Notes under the pieces: model-generated
What the model saw: the letters and a program-made list of their open reading frames with translations, nothing else
What the model was told of the DNA's origin: nothing
Database searches by the model: none
Program-made: the position numbers and the translations under genes
In this document: positions 24,376 to 51,914 of the stretch, piece after piece
Numbering within the stretch: the stretch's first letter is position 1
How the letters are laid out: the number at the start of each line of letters is the position of its first letter
Origin: Escherichia coli
GTDB taxonomy: Bacteria > Pseudomonadota > Gammaproteobacteria > Enterobacterales > Enterobacteriaceae
Length of the DNA stretch: 64,000 bases
Reading direction: 5' to 3' (one strand)
NCBI RefSeq assembly: GCF_002854065.1
Contig: NZ_CP024147.1

Positions 24376-24527
24376 AGCGGCATTTTAGCGGGTGATTTTG
24401 GTAAGCGCTAAATAGCTATTCGCAGACATGCGTAACAATTTTCAGAAATATCATAGTACTATATGATCTTAAGGTGATGCTGCCAACTTACTGATTTAGT
24501 GTATGATGGTGTTTTTGAGGTGCTCCA

Positions 24528-24803
24528 GTGGCTTCTGTTTCTATCAGCTGTCCCTCCTGTTCAGCTACTGACGGGGTGGTGCGTAACGGCAAAAGCACTG
24601 CCGGACATCAGCGCTATCTCTGCTCTCACTGCCGTAAAACATGGCAACTGCAGTTCACTTACACCGCTTCTCAACCCGGTACGCACCAGAAAATCATTGA
24701 TATGGCCATGAATGGCGTTGGATGCCGGGCAACCGCCCGCATTATGGGCGTTGGCCTCAACACGATTTTCCGCCATTTAAAAAACTCAGGCCGCAGTCGG
24801 TAA
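24528..24803 (+). CDS. insA: IS1 InsA
   Basis: Identical to the other InsA copies. Confidence 0.95.
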
Positions 24804-25225
24804 CCTCGCGCATACAGCCGGGCAGTGACGTCATCGTCTGCGCGGAAATGGACGAACAGTGGGGATACGTCGGGGCTAAATCGCGCCAGCGCTGGCTGTT
24901 TTACGCGTATGACAGGCTCCGGAAGACGGTTGTTGCGCACGTATTCGGTGAACGCACTATGGCGACGCTGGGGCGTCTTATGAGCCTGCTGTCACCCTTT
25001 GACGTGGTGATATGGATGACGGATGGCTGGCCGCTGTATGAATCCCGCCTGAAGGGAAAGCTGCACGTAATCAGCAAGCGATATACGCAGCGAATTGAGC
25101 GGCATAACCTGAATCTGAGGCAGCACCTGGCACGGCTGGGACGGAAGTCGCTGTCGTTCTCAAAATCGGTGGAGCTGCATGACAAAGTCATCGGGCATTA
25201 TCTGAACATAAAACACTATCAATAA
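24722..25225 (+). CDS. insB: IS1 InsB reading frame
   Basis: Identical to InsB of copies 1 and 3. Confidence 0.9.
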
Positions 25226-25263
25226 GTTGGAGTCATTACCCGCCGCGAGATAAAGGAAAAATC

Positions 25264-25749
25264 ATGCTTTCCGACTGGTACGATTTATGGTTTTACACGC
25301 CGGAACTGCGACGTCCTATGCCTATTTCACGGCAACAAAGATTAATTGGGCAAATCTCTAACGGCGATGTCATTGTCACTAACTTTGAATATGCCTATGA
25401 CTCGACCCTGGTGGGGGAAGTCACGTGTGCTGAAAAGCAGTGTTACAAGCTGGCGCTGGTGCGTAAATCGGCGGATATCACCTGGCCGAAGGTTATCTAT
25501 TACGTTGAAAAAGACGGTGATAATCGCCCGTGGAAGGCAGCCTATTACTCGCAGGATGACCAGTTAATAAAAGAAGTGTTGTATCAGGATTTCCAGCCGG
25601 TGCTGGGGAAAACGCGACCCATGAAAATAACCGTTACCGATGTCCGTCACGGCAATAACTATTCAGTGATGGAGTACAGCGATGTTCGTCTGGAATCGCT
25701 GCCGGAGTTTCATTTCACCAAAGAGTATATTCAGCGAGGTGCGAAATGA
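25264..25749 (+). CDS. Hypothetical 161-aa protein with no signal peptide, probably the 3' remnant of a gene truncated by IS1 copy 2 (LolA-like fold is a guess)
   Basis: ORF begins 24 bp after the IS1 end; the frame is open back to the IS1 boundary; its stop overlaps the start of the next gene (ATGA). Confidence 0.5.
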   Translation: MLSDWYDLWFYTPELRRPMPISRQQRLIGQISNGDVIVTNFEYAYDSTLVGEVTCAEKQCYKLALVRKSADITWPKVIYYVEKDGDNRPWKAAYYSQDDQLIKEVLYQDFQPVLGKTRPMKITVTDVRHGNNYSVMEYSDVRLESLPEFHFTKEYIQRGAK

Positions 25750-27134
25750 AACGTACGCTGAAGATCTCTTCGTTGCTGTGTGTTGCGCTGCCGTTGACGG
25801 TACAGGCGGATTGCCTGTCAGGTGACGAGGTGGCACAAAACAGCGATGTGACGCTTTACGAGCAGGTGTCTTATGTCAATAAACAGGCTTCGGCCTGGCA
25901 GATTGCAGGCAAAAATCCCTACACACGTCACAACGGTTATCAGGAGGCGGGGATTGGCATCAATAGTGGTTGTTCGATAATCGACAATACGCTGGACCTT
26001 AAGCTCAATCTGTATGGAATAAACGAATATGCGCTTAAACCCGCAGGGAAATTCGAAACGGATGATAGCCGCACACGTGCGTTAATTAACCGCCTCAGTC
26101 TGGTCTATAGCGCCTCGGACAGCGTTCAATTTGAAGCAGGCAAATTTGCCGCGCCGTCAGGAATGTTCTTTTTGCGTTCGCCTTCTGATTTGCAAACGCA
26201 TTATTACACCGGCTTCCAGTCGACACGTTTGCACGATCCCAAAATGACATCGGCGTATCAGGCGTCATCGTGGGGCGCAAAAATGAACTTGGATACACGC
26301 GATTATGCGTTTTCGGCGAGCGTCATACCGAAGTTAGCCACCATCGACAAACGCTATGTGACGTCTGGCAACTGGTCTGCTAATCAGCAGGGAAACAGCG
26401 ACGAAGCCTATCTGCTGAGCTACAGCGATCATCGCTTTGGTGAGCACACACCGACAGTCAATGTGCGGCTCGGGCCATCGCCGTCACTCGCGCTGTCTGA
26501 CAGTTATCACTACACCCCGCAGCTGACGCTGAATGTCGACGCAGCCTACCACCGCTCCCAACAATGGCGGCATCTTTCCCACCATGAGACGGCGCAGGTC
26601 GAGGAATATCAGTTTCCGGATTCGCTCTATGAAACGAAAGACGAAAGCGGCGTGGAGCTGGCCCTGGGGGGGCAATACACCAGCGATAGTTTCAGCGTGT
26701 TTGGCGTTGAGTATTACTTTCAGAGCGAGGGGTATTCGCGTGCTGAACAGCGTCAGCAGCGCGAGTTAATTGATTTCCTCAACACCACAACCGGTTATGC
26801 GCCACTGGATCAGGCATTTGATTCTTACAAATACCTGATGGCTTCAGAAATCAGCAATACCGCCAATCAGGGGATGCTGCAGGGTAAGCACTATCTGAAC
26901 GCCTGGGCCAGTCTGCCGCTGGCGGGAGAGTCGACGCTGCAGCCTTCGCTGGTGGTGAATCTCGTTGATGGCAGCACGTTGCTGGGCCTGCATTATTCCA
27001 CGCCGCTCAGCACTATCAGTAACCAGCTTGAAACCTATGCCGGTGGCTATAGCGCGCTGGGAAGTCGGTACTCCGAATTTGCGCTTTTTGGCGACACGTT
27101 AGGCCTTTATTTGGGCTTTAAATACTATCTATAA
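25746..27134 (+). CDS. Putative outer-membrane protein (462 aa) with cleavable signal peptide
   Basis: MKRTLKISSLLCVALPLTVQA signal; long alternating-polarity, Y/G/S-rich sequence; C-terminal ...LGFKYYL. Confidence 0.6.
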   Translation: MKRTLKISSLLCVALPLTVQADCLSGDEVAQNSDVTLYEQVSYVNKQASAWQIAGKNPYTRHNGYQEAGIGINSGCSIIDNTLDLKLNLYGINEYALKPAGKFETDDSRTRALINRLSLVYSASDSVQFEAGKFAAPSGMFFLRSPSDLQTHYYTGFQSTRLHDPKMTSAYQASSWGAKMNLDTRDYAFSASVIPKLATIDKRYVTSGNWSANQQGNSDEAYLLSYSDHRFGEHTPTVNVRLGPSPSLALSDSYHYTPQLTLNVDAAYHRSQQWRHLSHHETAQVEEYQFPDSLYETKDESGVELALGGQYTSDSFSVFGVEYYFQSEGYSRAEQRQQRELIDFLNTTTGYAPLDQAFDSYKYLMASEISNTANQGMLQGKHYLNAWASLPLAGESTLQPSLVVNLVDGSTLLGLHYSTPLSTISNQLETYAGGYSALGSRYSEFALFGDTLGLYLGFKYYL

Positions 27135-27144
27135 GGATAAAGAG

Positions 27145-28089
27145 ATGATGAATAATGCTTCACAACCGACAGTACTGCTTTTTGCCGGTCAGGGTAATCC
27201 GGTTATTGGCATGGGCAGCGATCTTTGGGATCTCAATGCCAGTACAAAACATATCTGGGATTGTGCCAGCGATATTTCCGGGCTGAACCTGCGTCGCCTG
27301 TGTCAGAAGGGGCCGATGAATCGCCTTATTCAAACGACGGTACAACAACTGGCGGTGACCGCAATCAATGTAACGCTCTATACCCTGTGCCGTGAACGTC
27401 TTGAGAATTTAACGGTTGTGGGGTCCTGCGGACACAGCGTTGGTGAATACAGTGCGCTCTACGCTGCCGGAGCTATTTCTCTTGAGACGCTATTTGGCAT
27501 GATTCACTTCAGAGCCAGCCTGATGCATGACGAAAGCCAGAGAAATAAAGGCGCAATGCTGGCGGTTAAAGGCATCAACCGCGAACAACTGCAGACGATG
27601 ATTACGGAATCAGGCATTGCGCTGGATATTAGCTGTGATAACACGCCGCGCCAGCAGGTTATTGGAGGAACGCAGGCTGCGTTGAATGAATTTGCCACGC
27701 TGCTGATGGCCGCTGGATACGAACCGGTTAAACTCGGTGTGAGCGGTGCTTGGCACACGCGTTTGATGGAGGACGGCGTTCAGGCAATGCGCGATTATCT
27801 TGCCGGACTGGATATCGCTTCGCCAGAGCATCAGGTTCTGATGAACGTAACAGCAAAAAGCGAGGTCGCTCCGTCAATTATCAAAGAAAATCTCTCATTA
27901 CACTTAACTCATACGGTGAAATGGACTGAATCTCTCGATACATTTCTGAATATGCCAACCTCGGTAGCCTTCCTTGAAATAAGTAATAAGCCCTATTTGG
28001 GGAATATGTTAAACGATTTTGCTGGTGTGGATCAGCAACGAGTTATGCATTGTCGTAAAGCATTTAGTGATGCGAAGGTATTCAAATGA
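27145..28089 (+). CDS. FabD-like acyltransferase (malonyl-CoA:ACP transacylase family, 314 aa)
   Basis: Active-site-like GHSVGE and N-terminal [14 protein letters not shown] resemble FabD GHSLGE / PGQGSQ motifs; possibly the intact counterpart of the K-12 ymdE fragment. Confidence 0.65.
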
Positions 28090-29072
28090 TTCCTGATTAT
28101 TTAACTTTTATTCGCTTTCAGGATAAACGAAGTCTGATATACATTTATGCTATTGGACTTATTCTGATAGGCTTTTATTGGAAAAATGCAGGATTTACTT
28201 TTCCATCAGAGGATATTGGTGTCGTTAGTGGGATTCTGGCCCTGGTGCTGTATAATTTTATTTTTGATCTCAAGGCGTACTGGGCTTATAAATGCGTCAC
28301 GAAGAATATCGATTTTTCGTGGTTTAAGAAAAAGCAGAACCACAAAATAGAATTATTTCTTACGCAACCTCTGGTGGCAGGATTTCTGTCGTTAATCATG
28401 TTGAGTGCAATGAGTTGGGGGCTATACCAGCGTCTACCCTCGTTATATGCGCTGTTCCTGATTTCGTTACTTGGGCCGTTGGTTATCTTTCTGCTGTTTC
28501 GGATGATCCGCACCAGTTATGTCAAGCAGGTCGCTATTTCAGTAGCGAAAAAAGTAAAATATAAAAGTCTGACTCGCTATGTGCTGCTTTCGGTGTGCAT
28601 CTCAACGGTTGTTAACCTGCTTACTATCAGCCCGTTGCGTAACAGTGATTCTTTTGTGATAGAGGGGCAGTGGTTAACGTTTAAATCGATAATTGCATTG
28701 CTCATTCTTTGTGGCGTAGTGTTGGCGATTAATCTGTTTTTTCTGCGCTTCTCCAGGCGGTACGCTTTTTTGGGCAGGCTTTTTTTGCAGGAAATCGATC
28801 TGTTTTTCTCCAGTGAAAATGTGTTGTCGACCTTTTTTGCCAAGCCGCTTTGGCTTCGGTTATTCATATTGCTGGTTATTGAAGTGATGTGGATTACGCT
28901 GGTGTCGGTATTGGCAACGCTTGTGGAATGGCGGATTTGGTTTGAAGCCTATTTTTTACTCTGCTATGTACCGTGCTTAATTTACTATTTTTTCTATTGT
29001 CGATTTCTCTGGCATAACGATTTTATGATGGCATGTGACATGTATTTCCGTTGGGGGCATTTTAATAAGTGA
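28086..29072 (+). CDS. ycdU: YcdU polytopic inner-membrane protein (328 aa)
   Basis: Many predicted TM helices; length and sequence match my recollection of YcdU; ATGA overlap with the upstream gene. Confidence 0.8.
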
Positions 29073-29203: not shown

Positions 29204-29463
29204 CCCGGTGTGTGCAATATACGAAAAAAAGCCCGTACTTTCGTACGAGCTCTTCTTTAAATATGGTGGTGAGGGGGGGATTGACTCGCTTCGCTCGCCC
29301 TGCGGGCAGCCCGCTCACTGCGTTCACGGTCTGTCCAACTGGCTGTCGCCAGTTGTCGACCCCTGGACGGGGCTTCTCATCCCCCCGGTGTGTGCAATAT
29401 ACGAAAAAAAAGCCCGTACTTTCGTACGAGCTCTTCTTTAAATATGGCGGTGAGGGGGGGATT
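29204..29463. repeat. Two direct copies (29204-29282 and 29384-29463) of a ~79-bp segment covering the serX 3' end plus its terminator, separated by 101 bp of GC-rich DNA
   Basis: Copies differ only by one extra A and one C/T change; the first copy ends with a pseudo tRNA 3' end tggtggtgagggggggatt. Confidence 0.85.
29404..29431 (-). terminator. Rho-independent terminator of serX
   Basis: On the minus strand, hairpin gctcgtac / gtacgggc followed by T8, 13 nt past the tRNA 3' end. Confidence 0.7.
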
Positions 29464-29532
29464 CGAACCCCCGATACGTTGCCGTATACACACTTTCCAG
29501 GCGTGCTCCTTCAGCCACTCGGACACCTCACC
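29445..29532 (-). tRNA. serX: tRNA-Ser (GGA), 88 nt
   Basis: Reverse complement GGTGAGGTGTCCGAGTGGCTGAAGGAGCACGCCTGGAAAGTG...GGTTCGAATCCCCCCCTCACCGCCA; long variable arm; encoded CCA. Confidence 0.95.
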
Positions 29533-34878: not shown

Positions 34879-34995
34879 CTTTTTATCCGCTTCCATCATA
34901 TCCAGAAGAATAATAGAGCCTGAAGAGATATCGTCCAGAGGGTGATGCTGCCAACTTACTGATTTAGTGTATGATGGTGTTTTTGAGGTGCTCCA

Positions 34996-35271
34996 GTGGC
35001 TTCTGTTTCTATCAGCTGTCCCTCCTGTTCAGCTACTGACGGGGTGGTGCGTAACGGCAAAAGCACTGCCGGACATCAGCGCTATCTCTGCTCTCACTGC
35101 CGTAAAACATGGCAACTGCAGTTCACTTACACCGCTTCTCAACCCGGTACGCACCAGAAAATCATTGATATGGCCATGAATGGCGTTGGATGCCGGGCAA
35201 CCGCCCGCATTATGGGCGTTGGCCTCAACACGATTTTCCGCCATTTAAAAAACTCAGGCCGCAGTCGGTAA
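34996..35271 (+). CDS. insA: IS1 InsA
   Basis: Identical to the other InsA copies. Confidence 0.95.
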
Positions 35272-35693
35272 CCTCGCGCATACAGCCGGGCAGTGACGTC
35301 ATCGTCTGCGCGGAAATGGACGAACAGTGGGGATACGTCGGGGCTAAATCGCGCCAGCGCTGGCTGTTTTACGCGTATGACAGGCTCCGGAAGACGGTTG
35401 TTGCGCACGTATTCGGTGAACGCACTATGGCGACGCTGGGGCGTCTTATGAGCCTGCTGTCACCCTTTGACGTGGTGATATGGATGACGGATGGCTGGCC
35501 GCTGTATGAATCCCGCCTGAAGGGAAAGCTGCACGTAATCAGCAAGCGATATACGCAGCGAATTGAGCGGCATAACCTGAATCTGAGGCAGCACCTGGCA
35601 CGGCTGGGACGGAAGTCGCTGTCGTTCTCAAAATCGGTGGAGCTGCATGACAAAGTCATCGGGCATTATCTGAACATAAAACACTATCAATAA
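35190..35693 (+). CDS. insB: IS1 InsB reading frame
   Basis: Identical to InsB of copies 1 and 2. Confidence 0.9.
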
Positions 35694-35853
35694 GTTGGAG
35701 TCATTACCCGTCCAGAGAACGTTGAATATTATGTAATTTTCCTGTAATTGCCAGCGATTGTTTAAGGTGCTGCAAGAGAGCTGTCGCCTGCAAAGAAGGT
35801 TTAGTGATCAACAATAATGTATGACCATGAATACTATGGACTTCATTAAACAT

Positions 35854-50548: not shown

Positions 50549-50942
50549 CATTTCACTCTTACTTCTGCTGTACGCCTTCCACTGAAATAATCAGATCCAC
50601 TTCCTGAGAAGCTGGACCTAAATCTGTCTTGATATTGAAGTCCTTGAGCTTAATTTTGCCTTCGGCCTCGAAGCCTGCACGTTTACCACCCCACGGGTCG
50701 TCGCCCTGACCAATTAATTTCGCTTCCAGCGTGACGGGTTTGGTTACACCATTCAGCGTCAGATCGCCGGTAATATCCAGTTCGTCACCGTCTTTCTTCA
50801 CGCTGGTGGAGGTGAATGTTGCCTGTGGATATTTTGCGGTATTGAGGAAATCCGCACTGCGAAGATGTTTATCGCGTTCGGCGTGGTGGTGATGCTGCCA
50901 ACTTACTGATTTAGTGTATGATGGTGTTTTTGAGGTGCTCCA

Positions 50943-51218
50943 GTGGCTTCTGTTTCTATCAGCTGTCCCTCCTGTTCAGCTACTGACGGGGTGGTGCGTA
51001 ACGGCAAAAGCACTGCCGGACATCAGCGCTATCTCTGCTCTCACTGCCGTAAAACATGGCAACTGCAGTTCACTTACACCGCTTCTCAACCCGGTACGCA
51101 CCAGAAAATCATTGATATGGCCATGAATGGCGTTGGATGCCGGGCAACCGCCCGCATTATGGGCGTTGGCCTCAACACGATTTTCCGCCATTTAAAAAAC
51201 TCAGGCCGCAGTCGGTAA
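50943..51218 (+). CDS. insA: IS1 InsA
   Basis: Identical to the other InsA copies. Confidence 0.95.
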
Positions 51219-51640
51219 CCTCGCGCATACAGCCGGGCAGTGACGTCATCGTCTGCGCGGAAATGGACGAACAGTGGGGATACGTCGGGGCTAAATCGCG
51301 CCAGCGCTGGCTGTTTTACGCGTATGACAGTCTCCGGAAGACGGTTGTTGCGCACGTATTCGGTGAACGCACTATGGCGACGCTGGGGCGTCTTATGAGC
51401 CTGCTGTCACCCTTTGACGTGGTGATATGGATGACGGATGGCTGGCCGCTGTATGAATCCCGCCTGAAGGGAAAGCTGCACGTAATCAGCAAGCGATATA
51501 CGCAGCGAATTGAGCGGCATAACCTGAATCTGAGGCAGCACCTGGCACGGCTGGGACGGAAGTCGCTGTCGTTCTCAAAATCGGTGGAGCTGCATGACAA
51601 AGTCATCGGGCATTATCTGAACATAAAACACTATCAATAA
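51137..51640 (+). CDS. insB: IS1 InsB reading frame (R65S variant)
   Basis: YDSLRK here versus YDRLRK in the other copies. Confidence 0.9.
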
Positions 51641-51914
51641 GTTGGAGTCATTACCCGGCGTGGTTAGTATCGACGCTGGTGGTGTTAATTGTCACATTCA
51701 CTTTATCGGCAGCTGGATTTTTTTCATCAAAGGTAAAAGTACCGTCGAAATCTTTAAAGGTGCCATATAACCAGCTATAGCCAAGATGCTGGATGCGGAA
51801 GTTAACAAAGGCGTGCTGACCTTCTTTGTCAATTTTGTAATCGGCGGCAACCGCTGAACCGGCAGAGAACATCAGGGACGCGAAGGTTAAACCAAGCAGG
51901 CTTTTTTTCATTTT

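Follow-up and report, generated by a model that had tools for sequence, protein, structure and literature searches.

An IS1 copy without target-site duplication as the probable scar of a stepwise 29-kb deletion of an OI-47-like island in Escherichia coli

How did one of several nearly identical IS1 copies come to lie between two unrelated flanks, with a shortened gene at its side? The 64-kb window (the whole stretch of E. coli DNA analysed here) contained four complete 768-bp IS1 copies, which were located by searching both IS1 termini and extracting the flanks: copy 1 at 17160–17927 (minus strand) and copies 2, 3, and 4 at 24473–25240, 34941–35708, and 50888–51655 (all plus strand), respectively. 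Copies 1, 2, and 3 were identical in sequence, while copy 4 differed by one base. Copies 1, 3, and 4 were bounded by perfect 9-bp target-site duplications (GCATAGGGG, CGTCCAGAG, and CGGCGTGGT, respectively), whereas copy 2 had TGATCTTAA on its left (24464–24472) and CGCCGCGAG on its right (25241–25249), two 9-mers without any likeness. Flank extraction thus agreed with the earlier note in that copy 2, unlike the other three, had no target duplication; since its flanks differed, they could not be the product of one simple insertion.

Copy 2 itself was a complete IS1 (IS1B-type), and its lack of a duplication left its family membership unaffected. It had the IS1 family length of 768 bp and both terminal inverted repeats (imperfect, about 23 bp, GGTGATGCTGCCAACTTACTGAT and GGTAATGACTCCAACTTATTGAT, read directly at both ends), and it displayed the overlapping frames insA (24528–24803, 91 aa) and insB' (24722–25225) with a programmed −1 frameshift; the same IS1 sequence in strain CUWW06 was annotated as an IS1B family transposase with programmed frameshift. 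The right junction read GGAGTCATTACC followed directly by CGCCGCGAG. The range 24376–25263 given in the earlier note exceeded the element by 97 bp of intergenic sequence (24376–24472) on one side and by 23 bp of the truncated gene on the other.

A 47-kb sequence of O157:H7 strain PV15-279 with the dgcT-to-ycdU interval (L003 coordinates) was used as the undeleted reference; among 5,426 complete E. coli genomes, window positions 25241–27140 had a match in 389, most of which were O157:H7. The alignment of the left flank ended at L003:12873 and that of the right flank began at L003:42022, both plus/plus, and thus O157:H7 has the flanks in collinear order and like orientation, with 29,148 bp between them and both breakpoints flush with the complete IS1 termini. 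Each unduplicated 9-mer occurred once in this reference, the left one at the breakpoint and the right one at L003:42022. To the left of the deletion, the diguanylate cyclase gene dgcT (ycdT; 23017–24375, plus strand) was intact and 100% identical to dgcT of CUWW06, and it was followed by the retained 97-bp dgcT–pdeT spacer (24376–24472, plus strand), which aligned up to L003:12873, the ATG of pdeT/vmpA lying at L003:12874. A search for the missing 29,148 bp elsewhere within the 64-kb window found none of it. Two simpler accounts were rejected: an inversion, because both flanks kept the reference orientation, and an IS1 insertion into a pre-existing deletion junction, because the 9-bp duplication expected from it was absent. 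Alignment with an intact dgcT-to-ycdU interval, which the earlier note had proposed as a check, therefore sized the deletion at 29,148 bp, and the loss of this segment between collinear flanks bore out its reading of either an IS-mediated adjacent deletion or a recombination between two IS1 copies. That a deletion occurred here, whatever its enzymology, is practically certain.

The right breakpoint fell inside a gene. In O157:H7 the intact LolA-like protein had 262 aa (789 nt) with the N-terminal signal peptide MNMAFYGKWFACLWLATSCVQA, and its residues 84–259 matched the Pfam model LolA_like (PF17131; complete domain, model positions 2–184); an NCBIfam scan of both the intact and the truncated LolA-like proteins gave no family, and the domain was supplied by Pfam. 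In the window, 25241–25749 (plus strand) was a 3' remnant, 509 of 789 nt, of this 'outer membrane lipoprotein-sorting protein' gene, as judged from the O157:H7 alignment and Pfam: codons 94–262 were kept, while the signal peptide and the domain start were gone, so that the window copy had no complete LolA_like domain with signal peptide. The 161-aa ORF at 25264–25749 started at the internal Met102, in frame with residues 102–262 of the 262-aa protein. The remnant is accordingly a pseudogene, as the 161-aa ORF would better be called in annotation, and RefSeq has treated the same sequence in CUWW06 in this way ('incomplete; missing N-terminus'). The earlier proposal that the gene next to the IS1 is 5'-truncated was confirmed: its first 280 nt, the signal peptide, and the upstream operon genes with their promoters were absent relative to O157:H7. 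The opposite case, namely homologues that are full length at 161 aa and an ancestral sequence with nothing missing, was not what O157:H7 presented, its protein having 262 aa.

Three genes followed the remnant on the plus strand: (i) a gene for a 462-aa hypothetical protein (25746–27134), which had lost its upstream operon and was intact, with 31 nt and 7 aa differing from O157 and no stops; (ii) an intact ACP S-malonyltransferase (FabD-like) gene (27148–28089), of which ymdE of K-12 is a 3' fragment, as found by comparison with O157 and K-12; and (iii) ycdU (28086–29072), intact in comparison with O157. The differences of all three from O157 were mostly synonymous and without stops, which suggests from sequence either a recent deletion or continued use of the genes. 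All three are deprived of every upstream operon promoter, a point of relevance to their annotation.

The missing 29,148 bp comprised 23 whole genes, from pdeT/vmpA through an ABC permease gene, plus 280 nt from the 5' end of the LolA-like gene. Included were pdeT/vmpA (EAL-domain), a YqeJ-family gene, a winged-helix grvA-type regulator, an SDR gene, a chaperone–usher fimbrial operon, a filamentous-haemagglutinin/ShlB two-partner secretion pair, an acpS–SDR–FabZ–ACP–ketosynthase cluster (lipid-like biosynthesis), and an ABC transporter. OI-47 of O157:H7 spans 31,727 bp (z1528–z1556), includes grvA, and counts as an 'island' of O157 in comparison with K-12 (PMC8565820). The segment studied here had the same identity, as it lay between dgcT (ycdT) and ycdU, measured about 31.7 kb, and held vmpA/pdeT and grvA; only its last 3.5 genes were retained in the window. 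The loss of 29 kb of a virulence-associated island, with its pdeT/vmpA, grvA, fimbriae, two-partner secretion adhesin, and lipid-like cluster, would thus be the work of one IS1 copy. The 'island' label of OI-47 would invite the reverse polarity, in which the window is ancestral and the 29 kb were inserted later in O157:H7, but the right breakpoint cut the Pfam LolA_like domain and removed the signal peptide, the first 48 bp of pdeT were kept in relatives of the window (see below), and K-12 keeps ymdE, a fragment of the FabD-like gene. Gene fragments on either side of the IS denote loss, not gain, and the insertion of an island into an ancestral window-like state is thereby refuted.

Besides the window, this IS1-type deletion was seen in only two genomes, the complete E. 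coli genomes CUWW06 and 100416, and these two relatives suggested that the left junction had changed after the right one was made. They shared with the window the gene order dgcT, IS1, and truncated LolA-like gene and exactly the same right junction, and flank identity to the window was 99.94–100%, with 5 differences in 22.6 kb for CUWW06 and 11 in 22 kb for 100416. On the left side, CUWW06 and 100416 kept the first 48 bp of pdeT (ATGCTT...GGCAATTG), which were followed directly by the IS1 end. The IS1 insertion in csgD was common to CUWW06 and the window, and 100416 had an empty site at the position of copy 1. The SNP counts and the empty copy-1 site of 100416 make (100416, (CUWW06, window)) the likely branching order, by which the 48-bp loss is derived; it is likely specific to the lineage of the window.

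No other public assembly showed the left junction specific to the window, and searches of genome and metagenome contig collections with the exact junction patterns gave 0 matches, these collections consisting of one genome per species or of short-read contigs that break at IS copies. With this exact junction lacking independent confirmation in other assemblies, and with IS1 being an identical multi-copy repeat, a mis-join across a collapsed IS1, or an error behind the missing 48 bp, had to be weighed. It is extremely improbable, given that two independent complete genomes had the same gene order and an identical right junction, that the flanks were 99.94–100% identical to theirs, and that the 48-bp difference stopped precisely where the IS begins, which is what a biological event would produce.

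The position of that stop also bore on how the 48 bp were lost. Slippage between ATGCT microhomologies was rejected as the cause, since it would have removed the first four bases of IS1 (GGTG), which were present. With slippage excluded and the loss flush with an intact IS1 end, a second transposase-mediated adjacent deletion is favoured; the junction sequence thus points to repeated adjacent deletion by transposase over slippage.

Copy 2 is probably the scar of an IS1-mediated deletion, by intramolecular transposition, of an OI-47-like island, with at least two events from its left end. The ancestor would have had the full island between dgcT and ycdU, as in present O157:H7. An IS1 would have inserted in the island, and intramolecular transposition would then have joined one IS1 end to a nearby target, with loss of the intervening DNA and of one copy of the original target duplication. 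The state left would be dgcT, the 97-bp spacer, the first 48 bp of pdeT, IS1, and the LolA-like gene from codon 94, which is the state still found in CUWW06 and 100416; in the window lineage, those 48 bp would have gone in another small adjacent deletion, again from the left (IRL) end. Two further observations counted for adjacent deletion: (i) the other three IS1 copies, identical or nearly so, had perfect 9-bp duplications while copy 2 had none, and (ii) CUWW06 showed a similar IS1-bounded loss in pgaC–pgaA, where the window had a simple insertion. The generation by IS1 of deletions starting at its ends goes back to Reif & Saedler 1975, as cited in a passage of PMC8860574. The junction structure resembled that case (gal region, E. 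coli K-12), in which deletions of variable length started from the IS1 terminus, with IS1 left intact and one duplication copy lost; the window differed in that the loss was a natural chromosomal one of 29.1 kb with a 48-bp step deduced from relatives, the mechanism being read from sequence. Two points counted against adjacent deletion, namely that a target 48 bp away is unusually near the IS end for intramolecular transposition and that the window-specific left junction comes from one assembly.

A third point was that RecA-dependent recombination between two direct IS1 copies, one near the start of pdeT and the other in the LolA-like gene, would delete the island together with one IS1 and yield the same final sequence, in which a single IS1 stands between hybrid flanks that lack a duplication. 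The IS1 copies, being identical, can leave no chimeric signature; such copies are ideal substrates for recombination, and the lineage was IS1-rich, with four copies in 64 kb and at least 40 IS1 pieces in the relatives. This route would nevertheless call for two additional, correctly oriented IS1 insertions, of which one would have to lie at most 48 bp from an existing copy: the 48-bp difference would take an IS1 insertion 48 bp leftward and then a second recombination. To look for a precursor, the 5,426 complete E. coli genomes were searched with a chimera made of the island flank plus an IS1 end and of an IS1 end plus the pdeT flank. Because any IS1 copy brought the two IS1 parts of this chimera together, the top matches were plain IS1 with at most 54% coverage, where a true precursor would give 75%; none of these genomes had a simple insertion of IS1 at one of the two ancestral sites, and none had the island with IS1 on its flanks. 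Two single-step intramolecular events give the more parsimonious account, and RecA-dependent recombination is an unlikely origin of the junction, if one still to be reckoned with. The sequences show directly the junctions, how large the deletion is and which genes it took, the truncation, and which states the relatives share or have derived; we infer that transposase and not homologous recombination was at work, and in which order the two events took place.

The earlier note had placed an IS3 and a ymdE fragment at this locus in K-12, which was correct: in K-12 MG1655 an IS3D lay between dgcT and ymdE, with flanks ttt and gtg and no 3-bp duplication, and its junctions (L003:12787 and L003:44527) bounded an independent deletion, in which this island had lost 31,739 bp, as against the 31,727 bp published for its size (PMC8565820). 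The K-12 arrangement dgcT–IS3D–ymdE–ycdU thus resembled that of the window in island, genes, and an IS scar without duplication beside a gene fragment, but the element was IS3 in the opposite orientation and the breakpoints were not those of the window (12873 and 42022), the left ones being 86 bp and the right ones 2,505 bp apart. Both K-12 junctions were present in 2,153 of the 5,426 complete genomes, and the intact dgcT–pdeT junction was present in 385; B2-type strains, e.g. Seattle 1946, had an integrase directly after dgcT. In 23CRST011, an IS1 without duplication (ACACGACAC and TAAAAGAAG) bounded a 26,590-bp deletion that ran from the grvA-type gene to nt 608 of the LolA-like gene. It resembled copy 2 in truncating the same LolA-like gene, while its opposite orientation, its deletion size, and the retention of pdeT marked it as an independent event. 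By these sequence comparisons, the island was removed by IS elements of two families at least three independent times. The suggestion of a recurrent target therefore stood in one part and fell in the other: the IS-mediated loss of one island was recurrent, with at least three events, but there was no insertion hot spot, the breakpoints being different each time.

The deletion is an ordinary IS-mediated one in a known island and involves no new mechanism or element, and its junction is already annotated as a pseudogene in RefSeq relatives; the new details are limited to how large the deletion is exactly, its erosion in two steps, and the number of times the island was lost independently, and they are useful for annotation and for rebuilding the history of the lineage.

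The left junction also contained an outward, hybrid promoter-like site on the minus strand (24458–24486), with a −35 TTGGCA inside the left end of IS1 and, after a spacer of 17 nt, a −10 TATAGT in the flank. This candidate was a consensus match only, scored 10/12, and pointed antisense into the 3' end of dgcT; had the window lineage not lost the 48 bp, its −10 would not stand at the proper distance. Fusion promoters formed by IS1 ends are attributed to Prentki et al. 1986 in a passage of PMC9330008. Promoter and terminator scans found the junction and the O157 island to be no richer in such signals than shuffled sequence, and the promoter scan of the right junction flagged no promoter-like site. 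It is conceivable, though quite improbable, that the 48-bp loss was non-neutral and that the near-consensus antisense promoter lowers dgcT, which stimulates PGA synthesis, as an IS1-driven shutdown of biofilm convergent with the pgaC and csgD knockouts. A search for pdeT and dgcT together returned no match in the literature library that was covered.

The remaining IS1 copies had the following surroundings. Copy 1 (17160–17927) interrupted pgaC near its 5' end with a clean 9-bp duplication, and pgaC was intact in 100416. In CUWW06, one IS1 in the same orientation replaced window positions 16100–21992 (pgaC' to pgaA'), and neither of its junctions coincided with the insertion site in the window; this loss is consistent with two-sided erosion from an IS1 or with a separate event. 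Copy 3 (34941–35708) was inserted in csgD, the master regulator of curli and biofilm, with the duplication CGTCCAGAG. Copy 4 (50888–51655) was inserted in yceI with the duplication CGGCGTGGT and had T at element position 444, where copies 1 to 3 had G; CUWW06 was empty at the yceI site, and hence the insertion of copy 4 was specific to the window lineage. The insertions in csgD and pgaC, together with the lost fimbrial and c-di-GMP genes of the island, suggest that IS1 has driven a loss of biofilm functions in this lineage. Genome reduction driven by IS elements, with loss of surface and biofilm genes, is established for Shigella and enteroinvasive E. coli. The window was similar to these in carrying many identical IS1 copies, in the disruption of pgaC and csgD, and in lacking the island genes for fimbriae, adhesin, and c-di-GMP; its closest relatives in the database were labelled E. 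coli.

Downstream of ycdU, a 59-nt direct repeat was present at 29224–29282 and 29405–29463 with 181-bp spacing, each unit corresponding to the serX 3' end plus a hairpin and T-run; serX itself, tRNA-Ser(GGA), was located at 29445–29532 (minus strand), and K-12 had further copies of a matching 75-bp stretch. An integrase-bearing island was found at the serX repeat in O157:H7, 100416, and B2 strains, and the 59-nt repeats are probably remnants of att sites of integrative elements. In 100416 (L009 1–23270), the yersiniabactin high-pathogenicity island (ybtP...fyuA) was located just past the integrase next to ycdU/serX, and in the window and CUWW06 ghrA followed directly after serX.
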